DNA of 61,681 nt, filler included, from Sphacelaria rigidula (taxonomy: Eukaryota), in NCBI GenBank assembly GCA_964200075.2. It is 6 parts of 6 records of this genome, joined end to end, with 100 filler letters (N's around TTAATTAATTAA, not from the genome) between each part and the next. Parts side by side here need not be neighbours in the genome. Positions count along the whole stretch, not along the records: positions 10,298 to 20,494 come from CAXNAA020006948.1; 5 more parts are not named here. One strand, given 5' to 3'. This document shows, one piece after another, positions 10,198 through 60,280 of the stretch (position 1 is its first letter; the number at the start of each line of letters is the position of its first letter). Both the position numbers and the translations under genes were made by a program. Below the pieces are notes generated by a model, which did no database searches, was not told the DNA's origin, and was given only the letters and a program-made list of their open reading frames with translations.

Positions 10198-10297
10198 NNN
10201 NNNNNNNNNNNNNNNNNNNNNNNNNNNNNNNNNNNNNNNNNTTAATTAATTAANNNNNNNNNNNNNNNNNNNNNNNNNNNNNNNNNNNNNNNNNNNN
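10198..10297. other. Artificial contig spacer (N...TTAATTAATTAA...N)
   Basis: 100-bp N run with a six-frame-stop linker at 10242-10253. Confidence 0.98.
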
Positions 10298-10400
10298 TTG
10301 TTGTCTTCACATTACAAACCTTTCCGATATCTGCGCGGTACATTGGTACTGAGCATCTTACGCGGACGCCTTCCGTGTTCACAGGCTAGCAGAAGAAACC
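10298..10400 (-). mobile_element. 3' end fragment of the RTE-like LINE family
   Basis: TTGTTGTCTTCACAT...TCACAGGCTA matches the LINE tail at 21590-21690 and 50805-50905. Confidence 0.7.
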
Positions 10401-10499
10401 AAAATAAAATAAAATATATCCAGAGTGAAAAAACTCACAAATTATACTATACGTAGTATTTAGATGATGAGACACTCATGACGCAGTGTATAAGCCATG

Positions 10500-10790
10500 G
10501 CTGCCCCTGGAAGTGGCGATACCAGAAAATGGGGCTCATCGGAGGCTGTTATCCAAATGCAAGATAATCAGCACGCTTCGGGCCGAACGATCTTAGCAGG
10601 ATGCAGCTCACCCTCTATGCATGTGACTTGCCGAACACACCGTGGCGCTTTGCGCTTGGTGATTGATTGCGAGCCTGGTCCGGCGCAAACCCGGCGTTCT
10701 CCGTCCCGGCTTTATAGGGATGCGAGGTCAAAGGTCATATCTCTATGCCATGCAAGATCATGAGTACACCCCCTCCCCCCCCCCCCCCTC
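10500..10790 (+). repeat. Dispersed repeat ending in CATGAGTACACCCCC
   Basis: Colinear with 52530-52793; a rearranged partial copy lies on the - strand at 41189-41290. Confidence 0.8.
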
Positions 10791-11223
10791 CTGTTATAGG
10801 GGTACGGGTGAAGTTGCGAGTAAGAGTCGAGCCCCTAGTTGCCATTTGACGTGACATCTCTCAGGTACAAGCTGTTGTTGAAAGTCACGCTGAAGTCCTG
10901 TGTAACTTGTGTGGTGGCATTGGAACTCCCCTCTTCTTTACGTTTTGCGTGTTTCGAGCTCGCCCGGTATTTGCAACTCTTCCGGCGGTACGTTATTCCT
11001 AGCGTGCGTTCTCTTTTCAGCATGCGCGTCTCGTACTCGGAACGCCATTCGTCTAGAAATGTTCGTAGAGCCGTTGAATAACCCTGAATATACTTTCGTC
11101 ATGGACGATGGGTTCTGCACGTTGCGTCCAAACTGTGTGTCCGCCTGTGGTGGTAACGTGTCGCAGTCCTTGCAACCATGTTCTCATTAGATGTGTTTGT
11201 TCGGCGGTGCCGGACTTTTCCAG

Positions 11224-11399
11224 ATTTTATGTCAGTTCGGGAAGGAGATCCTGTACCTCAAGTCCCGCATGGGCTTCGTGAAGCTAGCCCTCAGGAATGA
11301 TATTCCTCTTGTGCCGGGATACGTGTTTGGCGCAAACGACGAATACCATACCTCTACATTTCTTCAGAGCTTACGGCTCAGCGTGGTCCGCCGACTCAG
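11224..11399 (+). CDS. DGAT2/MGAT (DAGAT family) acyltransferase, penultimate exon
   Basis: ttccag|ILCQFGKEILYLKSRMGFVKLALRNDIPLVPGYVFGAND...RL AG|gtatgc. Carries the RxGFVKLAL...LVPxYxFG motifs of DGAT2. Phase 2 joins the next exon. Confidence 0.88.
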
Positions 11400-11552
11400 G
11401 TATGCGTACTGCACCAACCTCTATGGTGCACTCGGCTAGCCTTGTTGCTTCCCACTAAACCGTCTAATTGCCGCTCTTCTCGTCCCCACTAAACCGTCTA
11501 ATCGCTTCTGATGAACCATTGCGCTGATCAACATACCTTGGATGTTGTACAG

Positions 11553-11850
11553 GGTTGCCTTGCCCCTGTTCTGGGGGCGATTTGGGCTAATGATCCCGCG
11601 TCAGGTTCCTCTTCGCGTAGTCTTCGGAGCGCCCATCTCGTTCGGTAAACAAGGCGGTGGTTCAGCTGGCGATAGTAGCGGTAGCGGCAGTAGTAATAGA
11701 GGCGGGGGCGATGCAACAGGGGGTTTGCGGGATGTGAGCGACGAGGAATTGAAGGAGGCCCATGCGGCATACATTGTTGCCGTAAAGAAGCTGTTCGATG
11801 ACAACAAAGCCCGATTTGGATACGCCGAGCGAGAGCTGCAAATACTGTGA
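11553..11850 (+). CDS. DGAT2/MGAT acyltransferase, last exon
   Basis: gtacag|G VALPLFWGRFGLMIPRQVPLRVVFGAPI...AHAAYIVAVKKLFDDNKARFGYAERELQIL*. Typical DGAT2 C-terminus. Upstream exons were not found in this contig. Confidence 0.9.
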
Positions 11851-13173
11851 AGATGTTCTTGTTCATACAGGATACGTGCATAAAAATACTGGTGCCTAAA
11901 CCAGTCATCGTTGACAGTTTTGTAGATGTTCGTACTTGCCATGTTAACGGTGCCGGTCACGGTGTTTTCTCGCCTCGTGATGTGGAGTTAGATGAGCCTT
12001 CGATATTCACCGAAGCTGGTTCCTGAATCGTGTAGTATTGATTTTCAAGCAAAACGGGGTCAAGTTAGCGGTAGTTGTCGTGAGCGTTGAACCTTCAAAG
12101 TGATGGCAGTTTTCAATTGTCACCTGTTTGGCAATTTTTGTATCGTCACCTGCTGTTCGTTCCGACGTGTCGAGCCTGGCACCGTGTTCGCCCTCGTGCC
12201 TTTATCGTGATGGTCGGGGAGTGACTTGTGCCGTGTTTGTTCGTTCCATCACCTCTGTGCGTCAACGAAAGAGGTTAAAAGTGCAAATTTTGCCCATATT
12301 GCTGAAGGAATCGACGGACAGCGGGGACTCTTCACCTCACCCAGGACGCTTTGTGTTTGAGGCATTAGTGATAGCTTCTTACTAGGGTGTGACGAGACTT
12401 GTGATACTCTGTGTGTGCATAAAGTGGAGGGGTATTACTGGAATATACCAGACCTGGGTGGTGGGGTGGGGTGAACTGGCACAAGAGGGGCGGGAGGCCC
12501 TGTCTCCATGACGGACGACAGTCACCCGAGCAGGGATCGAAGGTGGCGACCTTCAAGACGAAAAGTCCAGTGGTTGTAACTAGGCTGTCAGAAATGAAGC
12601 GGTAACCATCATGACACCATCGCGAACACCCCATGTACTACGAGATGGGCCAGCCAACAATTCCTCTGGGCGGTGGAGCAGTTTTTGCTCTCTTGACCCC
12701 TTTGATATCGGGCCTTCAGAACGACCAATGAGGCTGGTGAGGAATGAGTGCCTGGCGTCTGCATGAAACAGTGGCATGTTGCTGAAAATTCGCGTATGTA
12801 ACTGCAGGGTTATGAAGAAGATCGCAAGCCGCCGGTTGCCACTTGTGGCTACGGATGATATTATTGTCCTCATCACCTTGACACACAGCCCTTTGTGGTC
12901 GGGGTGGGCCGCCATTGCTCTCTTCGTTGCATGCGGCAAATTCTCTTCGAGGGGTATGGGCGTTGCGGCGCACATACATGGAGTACAACACAGTGCATGG
13001 CCAACCCCGCCGTGGTAGTGGGGGGTTTGTCCCAAAAGGGTTAATGACGGCGTGATTTTCACATGAAAAGTTAGTGCATACACAAGATTGCGAACCTTGG
13101 CAGTCGAAGCGTTAAGATTCCGAAGAGTTAGTCGTTGGATGTGTAATCCTAAAGGAGGCGAAAACCGACATAC

Positions 13174-13576
13174 TGTGAACTAGGGTCGCTAGGCGTGGGC
13201 AGTAGAGTTACGGGTTCGGAAGAAGAACGTCGTCGTACCCTGCTGACGTAGGATCTCCAAAGCGAGGCGTAATTCTCTCTCATCGTTCAGACAAGGATTT
13301 TGGCCGTGATCAATGGTGAAGAAGAAAAACAATGGACCGAGCCAGTACGGCCGTACCGTGAACGGTCAACCAGGGTTCATACGGTGACGCTATTATTCCG
13401 AGCTCTTCCTACCGGAGACCCCGTTGCCTACGTTCCCAAAGATCCAGTTTCACAGGTTTGAACGTTTCGAGTCCGCTCATGTATGTTACTGGCGGACCCC
13501 GTTCCTGAGCCTGTCTTTCAGGCTTACAAGTGTGTTGTGGTGTTCATTACACTCATACATGTGCATGGTCTCCACA
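13174..13576. mobile_element. Probable solo LTR (403 bp)
   Basis: TGTG...CACA ends flanked by ATAC/ATAC (13170-13173, 13577-13580). It interrupts a repeat whose uninterrupted homologue is at 5955-6105. Confidence 0.7.
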
Positions 13577-16500
13577 ATACGATTTTTTGTAATCGCGATG
13601 GGCAAATATCTTACACTCACTCTCAACGTGATAATCGGAAGAAAATTTTCAGAATGCGTACCAATTTTATGTGTTACGTGCAATGTTTTCTTTTTTCTTT
13701 TGGAAACCTCATCAGCAGATCTGATTGGTTTGTTTGTTCCTCGCCCCGATCAACTCGGGGGTACGCTATTTCTCGTTTGTTCCTTCACGTCTTTTTTTTT
13801 TTTCATTTGATGTCATTTTTTTTTGTTTTTGAGTCTCGGAAGGGAGTAAGGAATAGCAGGGTTGGCATTGTTGGCATTGTAAAGGCAAGCCTACGGTTGT
13901 GACCATGGGTCTGAGAGATGGGGCTAAAGTGCAGGAAAAAAATAATCATGATCATAATCGAAGTTATAATAATAATCAGGTCGCGTCTTATAGACTGACG
14001 AAAATCCTCTCTGAGAGCTTACCTTTTGAACCTTTCATCACGGATTCTTGGCGGAATACGATTCTTGGCGGAATACGGGCCTTGGCGGATTGGGCCTCCT
14101 GGGAAAGATTTGCTATATTTTCCGCGAGGATTCCAGCGCGCTTGTCCGATCTTTCTTACGCCCAGTTTCACTTTTGGCCGTATCCTGGATGTTTCAGTCG
14201 TCCCAACAAACTTCGTGTTGTCGGGGAAAAGTACGTATTTTTCCCGACAACAGGACGATTTTGGGGACGACTAAAAAAATTCAGGATCCGATCGAAAGTG
14301 AAAGGGCGGGGCGTACAAACAAGCGGGAAAGTGCACTAGAGGAATGTTGGGATCGTTGATATCCTCATTCCCATTATATTAATGTCAATGTTGAAGAAAC
14401 CGTATCGTTCCCTACTCTTAGTCGTATAACTAATAATGACTTTTAAATGAGTGATGCCGCGATAGACCCCTCAGAAAAGTGGCTGGTTTGGGGAGGCAAA
14501 AGCTACATGTGAATCAAAATGACATAAAAATTGAGCACAGCGAGATGCTGGGATATTCAGTGCTTGGGATCGTTTTCGCCAATGTCGCCAAAATGAGGCG
14601 CTTCTGTTACGGACAAACGGTATAGTAGCCTTTCTGGCTTGTCCGTGCACTAGTTCCTTTTTACTACTGTCTTGATTGTTATGGTTACCATGATCGCTGC
14701 TCAAGCACTGTGATGACGAATCTTCACAAGACGGGGTATGAAGTGAAATTTCCTACTTCAACCAAACATGCTGCATATTCACCCACGTGCAATACAGTAT
14801 GCAGTGATTTGTACGTACTCGCTCACCATTTATCGCAGGGCAAAACAGTTTTCCAGCACAAGGGATGATCAGTTTAACGAGGAACAGCTCATCCTGAATG
14901 TCAGGGTGTCTTGTTCACAGCTTCAGGCGATGGTATTTCTCTCTTGCACTGGTGGTTTTGAAACTCGTGTCTCAGGTCACTTCGTTCCCTTCCATAGGAG
15001 TAAAAACCAGGGGGCCGGCTTTCACCGATTCTGAAAGAACCGAGTTCAAGTCGGATGTAAAGAGGCATGTTTGTGTAACCGTCTTCATACGGGCTAAAAC
15101 ATGTTCCCCCCTGACTGCGGTACATTGCCAGTTCCCGCAGTCAGCCCTCCGGGACTTTTCCATCAGAACAGATGGGCCCATCATTGTACTGCCCTTCCTC
15201 CATGTATGCCGCGATCCATAACACTCAGCCCCCATTTCTGTCACGCCAGCAAGGGTTGAGTCACCGGCACGAGGTATCTTTTTTCACTCAGCACACCAAG
15301 AATATCTACACGAGTATTTGATCTCTCACCCATCCATCCCCCCAACTGGAATGTGGCAGACCGTCTGTCGTCCTTGATTTGCAGACGTCGGGTAAAATCA
15401 ACGACTGCAATTATACCCCCTAGCTTCCGATTATCAGATCTTGCCGCAAGGGCGCAGCCGTCCTTGCTCGCGTGTGTGTGAGAGAGCACAGTAGCGGTGA
15501 TGGGAACATCACCCTGCTTTTCGACGACGTATTCTACTGCGCACAGAGGCACTTTCTATCCAAGCAAAGAGGCAGAGATAAATCGATATTCGCATTGGTG
15601 AGCGCCACAGGCAGGAGACGACAACCGGGGCATCCCACGATGTTGTTTCCGCGACTTTGCTACAATAACCCGCCTGCCCACACGTGATAACCTGGGTATG
15701 TGCTGGTACTGCAACAGGATGCCAACCTCTGCAGCGATTGGGAATCGCCGAACGAGGATGCACAAAGGACACTTGCGAGGAGCTTCCTCTCCGCCGTTGC
15801 TCCTCTGGTGATATGGTCATCGACACGCATGTGCACGGCATTCATTCTGTGCACCTCACCACACCGGCGTAACTACAACAGAAACTCTGCTTGCGAAGAT
15901 GCATTTCCGTGGTGATATCGTTTGGCGTGAGGTCTCGAATTTTCGAAGGCGAGTTGAATCCCATCCTAGTGTTCAACCCCAAAATTCAGAATCGGCCGTT
16001 AACTCTCCGATTGCATACGAGGACGGATGGCTCATGACCAGGATTGGTCGATGTTCGGTTCAGTATCTTGCACGCCACATTCCACCCCGGTCTTGGCGCT
16101 CAAAACTTGAAACTCGGAATATGACATTCCTGGCAAGTGGCGACCATGATGGAATATGTTTGTGCTGTGTGTTCTTGACTTATGGCCGTGTTAATGCGAT
16201 AACGGCTATTTTATTTTCATCGCAATAACCTAAAGTGACTAACACGACAAGAGGTGGTGGGAGTGTCTGCGAGAGACTCCTGCGACACGCATTCTTGCAT
16301 TGCAAGTCAACCCTGTGACATTCCACATACCATGCTGAAGTTAAAGGCAAAACATGTGTTGCAATTTGTCCACAACTACGCTCCCCATGACACATTTGGA
16401 AAGTACAGTATTTCCTTCATGATAACTTCCCGATGACCCAAGTAATGCGTGGATTATTGTGTCTTGTCAAATTCCCGTGTGGAATGTCAAAGTACGTAAA

Positions 16501-16824
16501 AATCTGGAGCAAATATCAAACACCATCATGAGGTAGAGTGACCGTACGTCATCGTCAAAATGTACACTCCACGCCCCAAGGGCTTCTGTGCTCTTGGTCT
16601 TTTTATCCTCCATGCCATCCCTGAAAGTCCAATAGTTGACATCATGTATTGAGGTCGCGACCATAAGCAGCATGCATTTTTCACCACGAACCCCTGGGCT
16701 CACGCGTGGAATGAACAGCAATGAACAGATGGCAAGGATCTTCACACGCAGCTTGCGTATGTACTCCCCTGGCATGATTCCAAAAATATAACGCTGAAAT
16801 CGAGGGAAACGTCTAAAAAACATT

Positions 16825-17760
16825 GCCTTTGAAATCCTCGTAGGTCATCGGAAAAAAATACTCATGACCAAAGCCTCATTGTTGCTGTGCTTGGTCGTGC
16901 TCCAGGCCAAGTTGTGAAGTTCAACCATCGACATTGGCGCGATGATAGGTGAGCAAGAATGTGACTGGGACGAATTTGGGCGCAGTATATTGCGGGCCAT
17001 TTACGAGCCCGATTTTAGCCATCGCGATTTGAATTTCAGAGGGAGCATTCGTTGCCGCATGATGAAAAGGGTGGGACACGTTCGTCTCTCTTTTATGTTG
17101 ACGAGTGAGGGACATTTTTCAACAGGAAGTATCACCTTTACTTCACGAGAATGAGGTGAATGACCTACCCCGTCAAGGCCCTCATTGGCTCCGTAGTTTC
17201 GACATGCTCCTGCAATTCTCAATACTCGATCTGAACTACGCTTACGATAATAATTGAACTCATTTACTGAGCTCGGGTCCGAGATCGATGTGCGTTCTTC
17301 ACCACCAACCCCAGGGCATGTGCACGAAAACAACAAAGCAATGAACGGGTCCCAAGAACGTCATCAAGTGTGTCGCACATGTGCTGACGGCTGGCGACTC
17401 TCCTTTATGATTCCCAAAAATAACCTACGAAATCCGAGCCAAATATAAAATATATATATTCATCTTTGAAATCCTCGCATACTATTCACAAAAGCGCCTT
17501 CGCGTCCTCAAACATTTTTTATTGTTGAGTGTTGTGTGCTGTGCGTCCACATGCCAATTTGGAAGCTCAACCGTCGACGTTGGCGCGAAAATATGTGAAT
17601 GAGAGTCGGTGCCGGGCTATTTTCGGCACAGCATATGGCGGGCCAGTCAGGCCGGTGTTGGCATTCACCATAAACAACCGACCGCGCGCGCACACCGGAA
17701 GACCGGAAGAAATATATTCCACTTCCTTGACGACATCAGGACCTTCTCCTGCGGCCAAAA
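16825..17760. repeat. Diverged tandem duplication, period ~640 bp
   Basis: TTTGAAATCCTCG at 16829 and 17465; TCAACC[A/G]TCGAC[A/G]TTGGCGCGA at 16921 and 17567. The minus-strand peptides of both units end in TYxRANVDG*. Confidence 0.65.
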
Positions 17761-18037
17761 CCATTTGTCTCGATGACAACGAGCGTACGTCAACACAAAA
17801 TAAAAAGAGCTGGTTTGTCTTGTTCGCCGTTGGCCCCTTCAAATTTTGATGCTCGACAAGAAGTCAAACTCAAGTGCGTGCTGAGACGGAGAGGTCAAGG
17901 CCTAAAACAGTGCGCATTCCAGCACTAACCCCCCCCCCGCACACCAGCCGCGGTCGCTGGACAACACATATTCAAATGTTGGAGTCGGAACGAGACGACG
18001 CTTCACCGGAAAGTAAATGTTTTATCGTACCGAGTAT

Positions 18038-18441
18038 CAGACAATTATATAAAATGGGGTTGTATGCTTGAATGAGATTCAAGCCCAAACGAATGCTTTC
18101 CCCACACTTACAGTGACGGTGCTAAATGACTTTTTTGTCGGTATAATGCCTCTCGATCGCGTAGATACTTCTTCTTAGCATTTTCCCGCCTCTGTGAAGT
18201 TACAGCGCTGAGCGAAACCCTCGTTTTCCCTGACGACACTCCGCAAAATCAGGGATGATGAGGGTTTTGCTCAGAGCTGTAAACTCAGAGTCGGTGCAAT
18301 ATGCTGAAAAACTATCTACGCGATCGAGGGGCATTAGAACGACAAAAAAATCATTGGACACCATCACTGAAGGTGTAGGGAAGGCACTCGTTGGACTTGG
18401 ACCTCGTTTTAGCATACAACCTCATGTTACAGAACTGTCTG
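18038..18441. repeat. Imperfect fold-back, arms ~195 bp, loop ~15 nt
   Basis: 18038-18233 is the diverged reverse complement of 18249-18441 (e.g. CTCGATCGCGTAGATA / TATCTACGCGATCGAG). Confidence 0.8.
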
Positions 18442-18894
18442 TTGAGTCCCATCAACGATCAAAGATGCCTTTGTGTTGGCCAATGACAACTATTTCCGAC
18501 CACGCGGCATTCCATAACCGCACACCACCATTATTCCGCTAACCCATATAGCAAGAACATCGCGGGCGTCGCATTTTCAATGAGAGGCCGGCCATCAGGG
18601 ACTGCACCTGGTGTGCACGGTTCCCCCCCCCCCACATACACACGCACAAAAACCAATAGCCCCCTCCCGCGCAGTGATGAGAGTTTTTTTTTTTTTATGC
18701 GCTGCCATCATGGGATCTCTGCAGCTCTGGGCGACGAAAGGGGGAGGCGAGATAGCGGGGATCTGACGCACTGCTCGTGGTTGTATGAAATGGTTGGGCG
18801 AGTCCCACGCAGGTGATCTCCGCATCATATTTCTCTCGGAGATGTTGGTTGAATATCACTGCTGCTGACGGACCACCCAGATCTACCAAGAAGT

Positions 18895-20393
18895 CTACAT
18901 GTCGCCGTTTCCGATCCAACCGGGACGCGTTCCGGCGTTCACTCCCGTGGAAGCCACGCGCCAAGTCACATCGCGCGCGGCGGACACTGCCTGCTCCTTC
19001 GTGGGATTCCGATGGGACCCCATGCCGGCCCGGAGGTGGGTAAACCGATGCTCGAGGATATCCTGCAGATAACGGCACAGAGAGAACAAATCTTGTCGTA
19101 AGTGACCCAGCTCAGCAGGCGTAGACTGCAGCACTTAGCAAAACAGCCGACGTCACCACGCGCCGTACGAGATAATGATTTCAACTCCCCACCTGACTGA
19201 AAACACGGGGGTGCAGGAATCGCCTCCTTCCCCCCTCGTCCACCCACTCCTCGTGAGAGAAAATATAACGGCACATGGCGATGAAGCCTAGGATCGCGAG
19301 GCGAAGGTCAAACCACGACTGCTCAGTGATGAAGGCGAAACTAGCAGAGTCCGGGCACACCGCCTCCAGTCCCTCCTGCCAGCTGTGGAAAAAATCCAAG
19401 ATCTCCAGCAGTCTTCCTATATGCGCGGAGGTGGCCGAGGAGATGTACCCTGCATCTTTCGCGACCCCCTTCTTGATCTCCACCTTCCTCCGCCCATACA
19501 AGCCTGGTATCCATTGTGGACATTAAAAAACAAGAACAAAAAAAGGAAGAAAAAATAGCCAGCGAACTCCGCCGTCTCACGCACATACCTTGTTCCCCCG
19601 TTCGACAGATGTAACTGCATCCGACCTCACGGCAACGCTTAACTAAATTATGGCACGAAGTGGATAGCGATGGGCTCGGAGCGACAAACCCCTAAGCCCT
19701 GCAGTCGAGTGGTGACACTCACCGTTAAAGATGTCTGTGAAGTCGTTCGTGTATTTCGCCAACAAGGCATAGCACCATTGAGGACCGTTGACATCAGTCT
19801 GACGACGCTGCGCTGACTCCAGCATCGTCACAGCGGTACCGGACAGACACTGCGAGGTGAAGACAGGGAATATGTACGGGTCTTCGTTGATGGAAAGTGA
19901 CGATGGCAGATGGCACGAAACACACTCGGAGGGGCGCAAGCAGTGACAATGGATGAAGAGGCGGCACCCAAACACGCACCTTGTCGGAGAGGCCGACGTT
20001 TATGCAGGTACGATTGCTTCTCGAAACCTGCTCGGAGGTGCGACTCCTGAACCTTGTCCACTCCCCTACTTGGTCCTCCGGGCGATCACCCCCCAATCTC
20101 AGCTCTTCGTGGTTGTACGCGTCACCGAGTGTCTTCAGGGAGAACTCGCCGTACGACACTTCGCCTGTGACAGGATGGGGCCAATACATCCCCAAGTGGC
20201 GCTGTTTGCCTTCCACGTCACTATGCGACACGGCATTCACCATCTTCTTCACGACGTGCTGTGAATCCGAAAGGTTGAAAACTTCATGATTGTGGTACGG
20301 GTGACGAAACGCCACGGGGAAATCGGCGAATATGTTTTCAAGGTCGCTGTCTGCTCGTGCCCATTTCCCAAAGGTTTCCGTACCGAACCGTGA
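18895..20393 (-). CDS. P-element/THAP9-like transposase, four spliced 3' exons (20393-19980, 19849-19723, 19503-19193, 19062-18895); 5' part lies beyond the contig end
   Basis: Three GT-AG introns with matching phases (0,1,0) give an open 339-codon frame. Motifs: LSDSQHVVKKMVNA (DxxH..K..N), INVGLSDKCLS, DFTDIFN, and RVFSQDILEHRFTHLRAGMGSHRNPT (the QDxLExxF...NPT catalytic-Glu block). Confidence 0.8.
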
Positions 20394-20494
20394 CTGAAAT
20401 GACCGGCTTCGGTGCCGCGGCCATGGACGCAGGAAATAACACAAGTGGGGTGGAGTCGAGGCGGGTGAACAGTAGTGCCGGCAGACGGGGGGGG

Positions 20495-20594
20495 NNNNNN
20501 NNNNNNNNNNNNNNNNNNNNNNNNNNNNNNNNNNNNNNTTAATTAATTAANNNNNNNNNNNNNNNNNNNNNNNNNNNNNNNNNNNNNNNNNNNN
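20495..20594. other. Artificial contig spacer
   Basis: 100-bp N run with TTAATTAATTAA. Confidence 0.98.
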
Positions 20595-30791: not shown

Positions 30792-30891
30792 NNNNNNNNN
30801 NNNNNNNNNNNNNNNNNNNNNNNNNNNNNNNNNNNTTAATTAATTAANNNNNNNNNNNNNNNNNNNNNNNNNNNNNNNNNNNNNNNNNNNN
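30792..30891. other. Artificial contig spacer
   Basis: 100-bp N run with TTAATTAATTAA. Confidence 0.98.
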
Positions 30892-41088: not shown

Positions 41089-41188
41089 NNNNNNNNNNNN
41101 NNNNNNNNNNNNNNNNNNNNNNNNNNNNNNNNTTAATTAATTAANNNNNNNNNNNNNNNNNNNNNNNNNNNNNNNNNNNNNNNNNNNN
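41089..41188. other. Artificial contig spacer
   Basis: 100-bp N run with TTAATTAATTAA. Confidence 0.98.
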
Positions 41189-51385: not shown

Positions 51386-51485
51386 NNNNNNNNNNNNNNN
51401 NNNNNNNNNNNNNNNNNNNNNNNNNNNNNTTAATTAATTAANNNNNNNNNNNNNNNNNNNNNNNNNNNNNNNNNNNNNNNNNNNN
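51386..51485. other. Artificial contig spacer
   Basis: 100-bp N run with TTAATTAATTAA. Confidence 0.98.
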
Positions 51486-54765: not shown

Positions 54766-57700
54766 ATGTCGACTACCGAGGTACCGGCAATAAAGCCAGC
54801 AGAGGCGACTGTAACCTCAGTCGTTCTAAGGGAAGAGTTGCGGCCGCCCAGTTACGGGAATTTGTATTCCGAGGGTGCTTCTCGATCATTCTACACGAAA
54901 TACGTGGAGTACAAGAGGAGGGTGGAGCATGCGAATGCGGGGGGTGCGGTAAGGCATCAGGTGGTTTCTATGGCGCAACTAGTGCCTACCCCCCTTTAAC
55001 GCGTCTTCGCGAGAAGGTTCCATGAAAAGCATACCATGACGCCGCTGCAGTTGGCCGTAGCGATAAAGAAGCACGCAGGGCATGCGACAGGCGCGGAGGT
55101 AGAGCTTACTCAGGCGTCCGCGGCCGTGGCGAGGGCTGTCGCAATGAACCACAAGGGGAGGACCATGCGTGAGAGGATTGGGCCCATAATGAGTAAGGTG
55201 GAGGCGTATTTTTCGGAAAATCCCAAAGTAGACATGGTTTATCGTTCCTCCGATGGGAAATTTCGCTCAGGGCCCGCTGCGGTGATGACGAAAGCGATGG
55301 TGGAGGGTCTGGCACCGGCGGGAATTCAAGCAGGCCGTGCTTGTACAGTTGCAGCACGAAACAAACTAGAAGTCGGACCCGTATCTAGTCATGGATACCG
55401 TGGTGGCTGAAGCTCAAGCATGGCGGCGGGTCGAAGTATTCGGAAAATCTTCCACTTCGTCGCCGCAGTCTTCAAGCCCGTGTAACCGCAGATCAAAATC
55501 CGCAGGCAGTGCCGCCACCAATATTACTTGCTATCAGTGTGGCCAGGTAGGTCACATCGCACGGAAGTGCCCAACGCCTTCTGAGGGGGAGTCTGGGCAG
55601 ACGAGTGCCGCGCGCCCTCGCAATCACAAAGGAGGGAACGGTAATCGGGGTGGTGGCGGAGGCGGATCCTCCAGCGGTAGAAGTGTACAGTCGAGTTCCC
55701 AACAGCAGCAGCAGCAGGAGCAGCGGCGTCAGCAGGGGTCCGGTTCTGGGTCCGGCTCAGCCGCAGGGGCTGCTGCTCCACAACGGGCGGTGCAGGTGGG
55801 ACCGACCTCTCTAGTGTCGGGCTCGGTGCCGGTGCCGCCGGCAGCAGAGCAAGGCGAGACGTCTGCTGCGGAGCCGGCCGGTTTTCAGCTGAAATTTGGA
55901 TCCGCTGCTGCGTCGGCCGGAGGACCGCTGCAATTTGGTTCTGCGGGTGGGGCTTCGTACCCGCCAGCGGTGCCGGTGACCCCAGCGGGGGCGTCTATGC
56001 CTGCGCCGCGCGCGCAGCCGTGGCGCCAAGTGGGGATCACGACCCATCAGTCGGCGGAGCAAGTGCCGGTTGAAGATCAAGACAATTATATCCCTGCAGA
56101 GTTATATCTCCCCGATCAACGGGCGCGGGGCGCCATCTCGGTCAACGCGGTGTTGGATTCAGGCGCCCACTTCACGAGCGTGTCGGTGTTAATTGTGGAG
56201 ATGCTGGAGCGTCTACTCCCCGGTGAGCAAATCCGAATTCCGTTCTCGCTCGGGGCGCGACAGGCCATCACCGCATCGGGGCAACGTATAAGTGTGACGG
56301 AGCGGACAATTCCCCTACACTTGGCTTTCAGGACGACCTGGGGGTCAGCAAAATTACCCCCGATATCGTTTGTGATCATGCCGGGGACGGATAGTGTCGT
56401 TCTGTTGGGCTCACCGACGCTTTGGGGGCTCGGAGTCGATCCGTATGATCGGCTGTTAGAGTCCCTAAAAACGCAAATGCCGTCGCTCGGTTCGAGTGTC
56501 GAAATGCCTGCTTTTTTGGCCAGTCGCAGAGTGAGCTTGTCGGTTGATGCCCTCCGGGAGGCGGGGGGCAGGTGTCCGAGGAGCGTGATGAGGCGGTGGA
56601 ACGCTTGGTGGAGCTGGCGGAAGAAGAGTCCGCGCGAAAGGCTGCGCTCGAGGAAAGCGTGACGGATGCTGTGGCGAATGGCCTCACTATCTCAAAAGCG
56701 GAGCGCTTGCGTGGCATATTGTATCGCCACGTTAACGCGTTTCGTCGTGCGCTGAGGGGTGATCTTCCTGCGCGCGTGAAACCCATGAGGGTTACACTGA
56801 AGCCAGGGGCGGCCGCGGTGAAGGCAAAACCGAGGAGGTATGATCCGGTAAAGTCCAGTTGGTTAGCTACTTGCATGGGAGCTCTTGTGGCGTTTGGGTT
56901 GGTGTTCAGGAATCTACAGGCGGCGTGGCCCAGTCCAGCGATGGCGGTGCCGAAGAAGGACTCTTTCCGTCTTGTCAGCGATTACGGAGCCGTGAATGAT
57001 CAGGTGGAGAAGTCGCCGGGTGTCATGCCCAATCAGGAATCCGACATGATAGACCTGTTGAGTGCGCGATGTTGCGGTACGTTGGACCTCATACAGGGGT
57101 ACTGGCAGATGCCGTTGGCCGAAGAGGCGCAATAAATATTCACAATCACGACTCCATTTGGTATGTTTACCCCGCAACGAGTACCGCAAGGTGTGTTGAA
57201 TGCTACTTCCTATTTTTGAGGTGTCATGATAGACCTTTTACATGGCTTGAAATGCAAGATTTGGGTGGATGATGCCTTTTTCTTCGCGGATACGGAAGAC
57301 GAACTGTTGGATACGCTTGGTGCCATCTTGGTTCGTTCAGAGAGTGTTCGTCTGTTTGCAGCTGCCCACAAGTTTACCTTTTTTGCTGGTGAACTAGGGT
57401 GGTGTGGGACAGTATACTAACACGGACGCGTCTCGCATGACCCGGTCCGCTTGCAAGGTTTGTCTGACATGCGGCGTCCAGAAACAGCCGCAGAACTAAT
57501 GCAATTCCTGCACGCAATAAACTGGTTGCGTACCTCGTTGCCACGTATGGCCGAAGTAGTGGCGCCCTTGCACGTTTTTCTAGAGGAACTCATGGTGGGG
57601 GCTGCAAGGCGCACGAAGAGGGTGGCAAAAAATCGTGTTATTCCACCCGCCTCGTGGACGGAGGGCAGGCTGCAGGCACGGGCGGCAGCGAAGGATCTGG

Positions 57701-60280
57701 TGGCTCATGCCGTGACACTGTTCCATCCCCGCCCCGGTTGCCAGGTGCTGACGTTTCCGGATGCATCCGAGTGTCATTGGGGTAGTTTTGTAACGCAGGT
57801 GCCTGATGCAGAAATGCAACAACGGTTGCCGGTTGAAGACATGACGCATGAACCGCTGGCTTTTCTGAGTGGCAATTTCAAGGTTTTATAGATGCGTTGG
57901 GCAACCATTGACAAGTAAGGTTTTGCTATCGTGAGCACTTTTCGTCGTCTTGAGCATCTATTGTGGAATGGCGTACACATTTCCACGGATCACCGAAATC
58001 TAGCGTACATTTTCAACCCGGAAGCATGCGTGACCTCTATGTCGAAGACGTCGGCACAGCGATTGGAGGGGTGGGAAGGTGTATTAGGACAGTATGGGTA
58101 CACGAGTTGTCATATTTCGGGTGAGCGTAACGCGTGGGGTGACTTGCTGTCGCGCTGGGTAAATATTCCCACTTTGCCTGCGCGCGTTGTGGCTGGGTAT
58201 GGTCCGTGCGAACGTGATGACCCGATGCCGTCCAAATCTGTTGTCCGCCAAGCGCAACGAAAAGACCTTGGGGCTGAAGATGCGGATGTGCAATTTTTCA
58301 AGTCGGACGTTGATACTGCTATCTTGGACAATGAAGGCCTCTTTCGTGTGCATGTGCGTGGCCGAAACGTTTTGTGGATTCCGAGTTCTGACAAGCAGTT
58401 GCAGGTACGGCTGATAATTTGCGCGCACTTGCGCGGCGCCGGGCATCGTGGTGTGGCTGCGACGCTCGTGCGCTTGCAAGAGTTTTGTGTCTGACAGCAG
58501 ATAGAAACTAATGCGCGCGAATTTTTCCGCCAGTGTCTTCACTGTGCTGATTCGAGGGTGGGCGATGTTGTTCCCCGCCCGCTCGGTGAAACGATCCATG
58601 GGACCACGCCGAATGAAGTCGTTCATTATGACTTCTTGCACGTGGGCGAGAGTGGCCCGCTAGCTTCCCAAGGTTTGTCGGAGGATGCTGGGTTCCGATA
58701 CATTTTGGTCATCATGGATGATTTAAGCAATTTTGTGGCTCTGGAATCAGGAGCAGTGTGTACTGCTGAATCGACTGCTGCGTCTTTGCGGAATTGGCGC
58801 AAACCTTTGGGGGTGCCCCGTGTGTGGGCGAGTGATACCGCCACGCATTTCAAGAATACGATCTTGACTCGGTTGCGAGAGGCTTTGCGCGTTGATCACC
58901 GGTTTTCGGTAGCGTATTCTCCGTGGTCTAACGGTAGGTGCGAACGTATGGTAAAGGGAGTAGTTCGTGCTCTTCGCTCTATTCTTCTTGAGCAGCGTCG
59001 AGAGGTGACCGAGTGGGTGGATGTGATGCCCGCTGTGCACTGGTCGCTAAATACATCGTATCGCCGTCGGTACGATAGTACGCCGTATCACGTGATGTTT
59101 GGCCGTGACCCTCGGACGTCTTTCTCGGTGCTGGCGTCCTCGTCGGCAGGGGAATGGAAGTGTGATGTTCTGGAGTCTTGGACTTGCAAGAAAGCGATTG
59201 TTCGTGCGTTGCGGTCCATTTTGTCAGAACAAAGACGGCCGGTGTCTGAATGGGTTGATGTTTTGCCAGCCGCTCAGAGGGCGTTGAATGGTTCTTTTCG
59301 TGAACGCTACCGTAACACTTCGTATTGTGTGATGAGTGATGCTGCGATAGGGTCTGCACTTTTGGGGCCAAAACCGGCCTGATTCAGGGGTTCCTAAAAT
59401 TAGGAGCTACACAAGAATATGGGTCAGGATATCCCCGTTTGCAAATTCATTCGGGATATCCCTAGCAAAGTGGAAGAAAAACCCTGGCGTACTCTCACCT
59501 ATTTCGAAAGGCGTGTTTTGGATGAGATAAAGGGTTCCTAACAATTCTACTCTCAGGCCGTTAAAGGGCTGACCCTATCGCAGCATCACTCTGATGTTTG
59601 GGCGTGCGCCGCGTGCAGCGTTTCCGCGCTAGCTTCTGTCACTGGCGGCGAGTGGAAAGTCGATGTCATGGATGCTGATACGTTGCGTGACAAGGTTCGA
59701 CGCGTGGTTGACGAGCAAGTGCGGTTTTGTAACGAAGTGCAAGCTATTGTCGCGGTGTCTCGTGAAACCAAACTCAAGCTTGCTCAGGGCCAGGCTGTGT
59801 TACCCAAGTTTGCAGTTGGAGATTTCGTCTTGTATGCCCGTGTTCATAGGCATGGTGTGACGCCCAAGCTGATGTCCACATCGACAGGTCCGTGGCGAGT
59901 GGTCGGAGCCGATCACGCTCACGTGTATTCCGTGCAGAACATTGTTTCTGCCGTCGTACACTCGGCCCATGTCGCTCGTTTGCGTTTCTATGCTGACTCG
60001 CAGTTGCACAGCACTGCGGAACTAGAAAATGTATTTCAGCAGTCATTCGTATGCTTAAGGTGAATGTCGGATGAATGCTTTGGTGCACGTCGCTGAGGAT
60101 GACAACGGTGATGCCATTGTTTTGGTCGATTGGGATGGGTTCGGTGCTGAAGAACGTACGTGGGCGTCTCGTCGCAAGATTCATTGTTCTGCGCCTGATT
60201 TATTTTCAAGAATCTGCGTAAACTGCGGTTGACTCAGGCGCTGAAAGGAAATTAGCGTCGGAGTATGGTATTTCTTTTTG
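54766..60280 (+). mobile_element. Decayed Ty3/gypsy LTR retrotransposon: gag, protease, RT, RNase H, integrase, chromodomain
   Basis: Zinc knuckle CYQCGQVGHIARKC (~55529), protease VLDSGA (~56149), RT LDLIQGYWQ / RVPQG / WVDD, RNase H DASECHWG and TDHRNL, integrase GHRG..CLHC and SPWSNGRCER, chromo-like VLVDWDGFGAEERTW (~60118). Domain order is gypsy-type. Multiple stops and frameshifts. Possible PPT GGGGAGAGGGGA at ~60424; no LTR pair recognised. Confidence 0.93.
59334..59591. mobile_element. 258-bp MITE, 21-bp perfect TIRs, 4-bp TSD TGAT, inserted in the gypsy integrase
   Basis: TGAT|GAGTGATGCTGCGATAGGGTC ... GACCCTATCGCAGCATCACTC|TGAT. Removing it restores YCVMFGR. Confidence 0.93.

Follow-up and report, generated by a model that had tools for sequence, protein, structure and literature searches.

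Whether a brown alga carries a gene for a transposase of the P-element/THAP9 type, and whether such a gene would belong to a mobile element or to the host, is the question raised by a locus in a 61,681-base stretch of DNA from Sphacelaria rigidula (assembly GCA_964200075.2), the whole of which is referred to here as the window. The locus lies on the minus strand, and a first-pass annotation, made from the sequence, had described it as an intact, three-intron P-element/THAP9-like transposase in a probable brown alga. We find that positions 20406-18895 on the minus strand hold the four 3'-terminal exons of a gene that is transcribed and correctly spliced. The encoded protein appears to be a highly divergent DDE (Asp-Asp-Glu) transposase of the P-element/THAP9 type (Pfam "TNP-like"), a classification that is supported but soft, and on balance the gene probably encodes the transposase of a family of P-like DNA transposons that resides in brown algae. 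The protein would be a very divergent member of the already known P type, and the most interesting part is the expressed, alternatively spliced state of the gene.

Exon structure and transcripts

Nine public sequencing runs were matched: three with 0.92-0.97 of the sampled words, one "algae metagenome" with 0.73, and five small runs (X5-X9) with 0.61 each, close to the fraction of the stretch that is exon. Contigs were aligned to the window from X1 (0.97, DNA-like) and from X5, X7 and X9 (0.61 each; studies P3, P3 and P1, respectively). No run is recorded as RNA and the RNA nature of X5-X9 is a guess; X5, X7 and X9 are treated as messenger RNA (mRNA) because three canonical introns are exactly removed in them and not in X1, the DNA-like run with the same organism code. 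The contig sizes and depths of X7 and X9 are almost identical and the two may be one data set filed twice, so that at most two independent studies are involved. The alternative to mRNA would be a processed retrocopy confined to the samples of X5, X7 and X9.

The three joints are found in one contig each of X5, X7 and X9, which skip 19850-19979, 19504-19722 and 19063-19192 (130, 219 and 130 nucleotides, nt); all three stretches read CT..AC on the plus strand and so GT..AG on the minus strand. Within the exons these contigs contain 0 mismatching letters, and the shorter side of each joint measures 128-255 letters. In X1 the joints are absent (0 contigs), although this run covers 30 of 30 bins, and no reads of X5, X7 or X9 fall into the three in-window introns. 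The three junctions drawn by the first-pass annotation, with their canonical GT-AG introns, are reproduced exactly by these three RNA-like runs; they link open stretches of the minus strand that lie in three frames. Joined by coordinates, exons of 427, 127, 311 and 168 nt form an open frame of 343 codons that begins at 20405 and is closed by the TAG at 18897-18895; with 20393 as the start, where the exon had been made to begin, the number is 339, as first given. The G+C content at third codon positions (GC3) is 0.70 in the coding part, compared with an intron G+C content of 0.49-0.55. The parts of the gene are the following, with predicted domains.

20407-20494, minus strand: upstream intron, 3' part; acceptor AG at 20408-20407, preceding exon beyond the window
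19980-20406, minus strand: exon a, 427 nt, from RNA-like contigs; predicted to hold the D(2)H motif between the close of the RNase H core (the strand preceding D(2)H) and the first part of the insertion domain
20256-20267, minus strand: D(2)H motif, SDSQH block (D-S-Q-H), a direct reading of the C/DxxH signature
20164-20166, minus strand: alternative acceptor, AG at 20166-20165 and exon start at 20164, in X5, X7 and X9
19850-19979, minus strand: intron, 130 nt, GTGCGT...CAG, phase 0; joint 19849/19980 in X5, X7 and X9, not in X1
19723-19849, minus strand: exon b, 127 nt; predicted insertion domain, ends F-T-D-I-F-N-G
19504-19722, minus strand: intron, 219 nt, GTGAGT...CAG, phase 1; joint 19502/19722, cut +1, in X5, X7 and X9
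19193-19503, minus strand: exon c, 311 nt; remainder of the predicted insertion domain, last codon the Q of the Q-D-x-L-E block
19063-19192, minus strand: intron, 130 nt, GTGGGG...CAG, phase 0; joint 19061/19192, cut +1, in X5, X7 and X9
18895-19062, minus strand: coding part of exon d, 55 codons and TAG; D-I-L-E-H-R-F..., candidate catalytic Glu at 19053-19051
18653-18894, minus strand: 3' untranslated region (UTR), minimum extent, from joint-bearing RNA-like contigs

On the upstream side, the RNA-like contigs match the window up to 20406 and continue with 30 letters that are absent from it (X5, X7 and X9). The exon therefore starts at 20406, next to an AG at 20408-20407 and 13 nt upstream of the start first annotated, and is preceded by a further intron and exon(s). 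With this upstream exon the gene has at least four introns, instead of the three first counted. Together with exon a, the 30-letter loose end reads A-T-C-C-D-G-G-S-E-H in frame, and the upstream exon thus joins exon a in frame. The edge of the gene part at 20494 had been taken for a contig end that cuts off the 5' half; it is the boundary of one of the pieces that make up the window, and DNA contigs of X1 run across it. The description as intact holds for the C-terminal 343 codons, which are open, and extends no further than those.

The same 30-letter end of the upstream exon is attached both at 20406 and at 20164 in X5, X7 and X9. Use of the 20164 acceptor shifts the frame and leads to a stop after 14 codons, and this transcript would give a protein truncated just past the second Asp. 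To judge from the contig depths (34.6 vs 39.5, 28.9 vs 32 and 28.9 vs 31.8), the 20164 form is probably minor and makes up roughly a tenth of the transcripts.

At the 3' end, the joint-bearing contigs reach 18653 (X5), 18697 (X7) and 18684 (X9), with a break at an A13/C-run. Another break lies further downstream, at 18488 (minus strand): contigs of the RNA-like runs X5 and X9 follow the window to the right of it, their 65-76 letters on the left are foreign, and a GT stands at 18487-18486; the 30 foreign letters beyond 18488 are absent from the window. This break may be an intron in the 3' UTR, or it may come from another locus with which a repeat of about three copies is shared.

Relatives and assignment to the P/THAP9 type

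With exon a as the query, phmmer (E<=1e-3) returned 31 proteins from 1.84 billion representatives of a library clustered at 50% identity, and no animal THAP9 or P transposase is among them. We counted 27 as family (35-99% identity): P0001, 99% identical, comes from a Logan contig and represents this very locus with its intron read through, and the 26 others are short fragments with 35-64% identity. Because the library representatives were clustered at 50% identity, these relatives stand for many separate clusters. The remaining P0027, P0028, P0030 and P0031 were set aside as spurious, as long or repeat proteins with 4-9 stretches on query residues 73-136 (only P0031 was inspected). A profile search for longer proteins yielded P0032 (857 amino acids, aa) from Ectocarpus sp. 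13 AM-2016 and P0033 (608 aa) from Hapterophycus canaliculatus, both deposited as "unnamed protein product, partial"; as the 2 of 2 relatives with a named source, they are consistent with the annotated host, a brown alga. P0032 is collinear with exons a, b and c, at 42.6% identity over 148 aa for exon a (E 2.5e-28), 36.5% over 52 aa for exon b and 37% over 54 aa for exon c. No longer relatives of exon c were found, and the C-terminal Glu region gained no relative by that search. The upstream A-T-C-C-D-G-G-S-E-H aligns with a "CDGA.EH" block of P0003, P0014, P0024, P0032 and P0033 that directly precedes R-S-F-Q. By sequence comparison, the window protein is homologous to this family, which includes the two annotated brown-algal proteins.

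In the exon-a alignment (A1), H-x-x-K-K-x-V-N-A-L-W-H-S-D and F-S-L-K-T are strongly conserved. About 12 of the 15 members reaching the end of exon a show K followed by V, the donor GT read through, and many members begin at the same S-R-S-F-Q, a read-through of the acceptor; the family has therefore had these intron positions for a long time. P0012, P0020 and P0024 look frame-shifted or decayed in A1, and P0020, P0022, P0024, P0025 and P0029 retain only 65-74% of the conserved columns, compared with 35 of 41 in the window copy. Neither the scan of metagenome and viral contigs with the A1 profile nor the scan of genome contigs found a related locus. Locus L001, from a scan with the window exon, has only an 8-residue pattern in common and no collinear similarity, and was rejected as a chance match.

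The signature of P transposases consists of D, D, D(2)H, a long insertion and E; the [C/D](2)H motif lies shortly after the second D (D339 in the Drosophila P transposase, DmTNP, and D414 in hTHAP9) (PMC8230255). The insertion domain between D(2)H and E comprises ~190 aa and binds GTP in DmTNP. The DxxH and QDxLExxF blocks of the first-pass annotation are retained, the former as SDSQH at 20267-20256 and the latter with its Q at 19195-19193, the end of the third exon, and D..F at 19062-19042. The annotation had treated DxxH as characteristic of P transposases, which does not hold, as the C/DxxH motif is common to P, hAT, MuDR, Kolobok and Dada (PMC9587614). The His of D(2)H and the following K-K-x-V-N are conserved to 90-100% in A1. 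A candidate for the second Asp is found only in the 30-letter RNA loose end past 20406 (C-C-D-G-G), and its surroundings make it likely to be the second catalytic Asp; D(2)H follows 53 residues later, the first Asp would lie beyond the window, and the candidate aspartates of P0032 are D486 and D598. The protein would contain an RNase H-like catalytic core, and the candidate catalytic Glu would sit in Q-D-I-L-E-H-R-F, 245 residues after D(2)H. The roughly 245 residues between the two may form an insertion domain corresponding to the one that binds GTP in P transposase.

Comparison with the ESM Atlas points to the P type. For residues 470-857 of P0032 the scores were 0.95 (196 and 193 shared features) and then 0.90-0.86, in clusters with PF21787, PF21788, PF21789 and PF12017, and 10 of the 10 best family matches share the family or clan. 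The cluster at rank 1 (0.95, 196 of 256 shared features) carries PF21787 in 25% and PF21788 in 15%, and that at rank 4 (0.90) carries PF21787 in 90%, PF21788 in 77% and PF21789 in 14%. With exon a of the window, 20 of 30 matches fall into a PF21788-carrying set (score 0.95, 180-182 shared features), and PF21788 (TNP-like_GBD) is present in 18-40% of the members of its neighbours. Among 24,736 Pfam models, PF21789 (TNP-like RNase H C-terminal), the family named in advance by the hypothesis, matched 19065-19000 with an E value of 0.045 and 14.2 bits (cut-off 24), covering the predicted Glu block Q-D-I-L-E-H-R-F-T-H-L-R-A-G-M-G-S-H-R-N-P-T; the match was read in the genomic frame, the Pfam scans covering the window's sequence unspliced or exon by exon. 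TNP-like families were found in 0 of 149 control open reading frames (ORFs) of the window at E<=1.

The motifs published for THAP9 match the family by eye, from the helix-turn-helix (HTH) block through the Glu block, and five short cores of them (PMC10824691, Table 1) were scored ungapped against 5000 shuffles. In the window protein, the D(2)H-helix core (motif-7) was best at residue 48 (397/5000 shuffles reach the score), the F-D-I-F-N core (motif-6) at residue 178 in exon b (113/5000) and the S-Q-D-x-L-E core (motif-10) at residue 286 in exon d (196/5000); these are the expected sites, in THAP9 order. The HTH core, expected to be absent from the half in the window, is at noise level there (4746/5000), and in P0032 it lies at 419 (19/5000), followed by others at 649 (142/5000) and 782 (95/5000). 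The residues around the algal Glu resemble THAP9 motif 10 and seem unlike a hAT dimerisation domain. Taken together, we regard the assignment to the P type as quite probable.

Several results weigh against this assignment. The PF21789 score remains below its cut-off, and no gathering threshold of a curated model (PF21787, PF21788, PF21789, PF12017 or PF12596) was reached; the match is gone when the 55 codons of exon d are scanned alone, and because 8 of 149 control ORFs match some unrelated family at E<=0.05, its E value taken alone is at noise level. At E<=10, no TNP-like Pfam family was found in the 29 rows of alignment A2 (26 family proteins, including the 857-aa P0032, and three exon translations of the window), and at E<=1 no Pfam family at all was found in P0032 or P0033. 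Searches against PDB sequences with the A1 profile and with P0032 missed the solved P transposase. The AlphaFold2 (AF2) model of P0032 from the 29-row alignment was unusable, with a mean predicted local distance difference test (pLDDT) score of 45.5, and that of exon a, a 138-residue fragment (pLDDT 67.9), had no significant fold match (best Foldseek E 1.2 in the PDB, best VIA Z 2.8). The ESM Atlas "recognition" for exon a was 1698, under the level of most known families. The motif-12 core missed the expected site in the window protein and P0032, and its best site in P0033, near the expected region, was equalled in 2671/5000 shuffles and is not significant; all shuffle figures for the motif cores are generous because the cores were picked after the sequences had been seen. 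The spacings also differ, with 50-53 residues from D2 to D(2)H as opposed to 36-40 in P/THAP9, and 245 from D(2)H to E as opposed to 192-199. Finally, the window copy has lost 6 of the 41 conserved exon-a positions, including a Trp held by the family majority.

The matches that these searches did return were rejected: those to PDB sequences were designed repeat proteins and a 33-residue zinc-finger stretch only, and the MarR-type repressors, the best Foldseek match of exon a, are not meaningful at E 1.2. Pfam found no THAP domain in P0032, a partial gene model; this domain is also missing from some annotated THAP9 orthologues (PMC10824691). The P/THAP9-like identity first annotated is borne out by the Atlas neighbours, the motif cores and the sub-threshold PF21789 score, and not by curated cut-offs, PDB sequences or fold searches.

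Set beside known systems, the algal protein, as pieced together with its relative P0032, resembles DmTNP (PDB 6P5A) and vertebrate THAP9 in the succession of two candidate D residues, D(2)H directly behind the predicted last strand of the core, a putative long insertion and a candidate E. It further resembles THAP9 in having the D(2)H-helix, F-D-I-F-N and S-Q-D-x-L-E cores, and in P0032 the HTH core, at matching places, and both in the domains of its Atlas neighbours (PF21787/PF21788/PF21789/PF12017). Alternative splicing of the P element yields a truncated product, and tissue-specific splicing of its introns is described (PMC7776569); the algal gene likewise has several introns and an alternative splice form that would lead to a truncated product. 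It differs from them in a distance too great for HMMER, in its longer spacings and in its host, a stramenopile and not an animal. In the rust Melampsora larici-populina, P-1_MLP/P-2_MLP (Repbase) are autonomous P-type elements outside Metazoa with 8-base-pair (bp) target site duplications (TSDs) (PMC3164196); their comparison with the algal gene is one of description. An algal P-like element would accordingly have precedents in kind. No brown-algal P element is described in the literature searched, outside which Repbase and the supplements of the Phaeoexplorer preprint could hold one; the main text of that preprint contains 0 occurrences of transposase, THAP or DNA transposon.

Mobile element or host gene

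A P-like DNA transposon family is the reading that we favour for this gene, and it is suggested by the many clusters below 50% identity together with the decayed members. As far as the proteins collected indicate, the family is diverse and includes decayed copies. P elements leave 8-bp target duplications and need GTP. The predicted enzyme would bind the inverted ends of the element, excise them and paste them elsewhere. The window copy appears to occur about once in the genome and to be still expressed: the depth of X1 over the gene equals that over the 3' flank (54-57), except in bins 19188-19335, and there is therefore no sign of recent amplification outside these bins, which weighs against a mobile element.

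In X1, the depth at 19188-19335 is about 4-5 times that of the rest of the gene, and across 19188-19409 (exon c) about 2-5 times. Two X1 contigs carry internal deletions, joining 18841 to 19384 and 18950 to 19387, with 30-33 letters on the shorter side. The excess depth over 19188-19409 and the deletion joints may stem from relatives at other places in the genome that are partial or have internal deletions; the extra depth at 19188-19335 and the two joints count towards a transposon family.

The foremost alternative, possible though rather unlikely in our estimate, is that the host has domesticated the gene, which would make it the brown-algal equivalent of vertebrate THAP9, with the transposase fold kept for a cellular function and the locus immobile. 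The depth of X1 over the gene is as for one copy, and the signs of a settled gene are the clean splicing in every RNA-like run, the conserved intron positions and the gene models in two other species. Splicing is clean at four or more introns, with no intron reads in X5, X7 and X9 and the word share of 0.61 in X5-X9; the breaks at the end of exon a (about 12 of 15 members) and the S-R-S-F-Q start are shared, and the two longer relatives are annotated as genes in brown-algal genomes. A precedent exists in human THAP9, which is active, single copy and without terminal inverted repeats (PMC7776569). However, many clusters below 50% identity and decayed members are more easily reconciled with a transposon family than with a single conserved host gene, and conserved introns also occur in transposon-borne transposase genes.

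A more far-reaching reading, fairly improbable in our estimate, is a deep brown-algal lineage of the P type, lying beyond the curated profiles and having a conserved multi-intron structure, in which this copy would be single-copy, stably expressed and either domesticated, as an algal THAP9 analogue, or self-regulated through splicing. If it were self-regulated, the protein made from the 20164 splice form, truncated and limited to DNA binding, would serve as a repressor, an echo of the splicing control of Drosophila P.

That the gene is a transcribed but dead remnant, with an open C-terminal half and a defect in its 5' half, its set of catalytic residues or its ends, we hold to be improbable. 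The 5' half lies beyond the window, 6 of 41 conserved exon-a columns differ, including the conserved Trp, and part of the transcripts use the frame-shifting acceptor. On the other hand, 343 codons are free of stops over four exons, D2 (in the RNA), D(2)H and E are present, GC3 is 0.70, and the upstream exon is joined in frame.

Least probable of all, by a little, is that this DDE transposase belongs to a C/DxxH superfamily other than P, be it hAT, MuDR, Kolobok, Dada or one yet to be described, and that its likeness to P is superficial. In favour of this one can cite the shared C/DxxH motif, the deviating spacings and the lack of confirmation by curated profile, PDB sequence or fold search, but against it stand the TNP-like domains of every named Atlas neighbour with a family (0 with hAT or MULE domains), PF21789 as the sole transposase-related Pfam match, the ordered THAP9 HTH, D(2)H, F-D-I-F-N and S-Q-D-x-L-E cores, the absence of any hAT dimerisation or MULE domain from the Pfam results, and the fact that no CxxC-type zinc finger is seen between D(2)H and E, where most Kolobok transposases have one (PMC9587614).

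For brown-algal proteins deposited as "unnamed protein product" and without a Pfam domain, the assignment to the P type would provide a name and a likely mechanism, and at least one member of the family is transcribed and spliced. A mobile element could be considered as a native cut-and-paste tool for genetic work in brown algae, and a domesticated gene would be an independent parallel to THAP9; in either case the understanding of how P-type transposases work is unchanged.

Surroundings in the window

The window is composed of six pieces, each 10,197 nt long except for the last, which has 10,196 nt, and its five joins each read N44-TTAATTAATTAA-N44 (5 counted, 0 expected by chance). The part of the transposase gene stands at the right-hand end of the second piece (10298-20494), on the minus strand. 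The other features of the window are the following.

10198-10297, 20495-20594, 30792-30891, 41089-41188 and 51386-51485: linkers; neighbouring pieces are not necessarily adjacent in the genome
11191-11436 and 11515-11847, plus strand: diacylglycerol acyltransferase exons, PF03982, E 3.8e-9 and 5e-6
55370-59379, plus strand: remains of a long terminal repeat (LTR) retroelement; gag zf-CCHC E 5.8e-7, reverse transcriptase (RT) RNase H E 4.9e-4, integrase core E 4.6e-6

In the 3' flank of the transposase gene lies a palindromic element of 404 nt (18038-18441) that resembles a miniature inverted-repeat transposable element (MITE) and is 76% self-complementary over 407 nt. It is present in very high copy number, with a k-mer depth of about 1e6 in bin 18300-18373 of the DNA run X1, and the RNA-like runs also contain it; within the window there is no second copy of the 3' flank or of this element, and it cannot be linked to the transposase gene.

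The only other mobile-element signal found in the window is that of the LTR-retroelement remains, whose domain matches lie in separate ORFs. The first-pass annotation had described the other transposase and pol sequences as full of stops; a loose check found the gag, RNase H and integrase matches of this one LTR retroelement spread over separate ORFs. An ordinary host gene, that for diacylglycerol acyltransferase, has two exons in the same piece as the transposase gene, about 7 kb past the 3' end of the latter.

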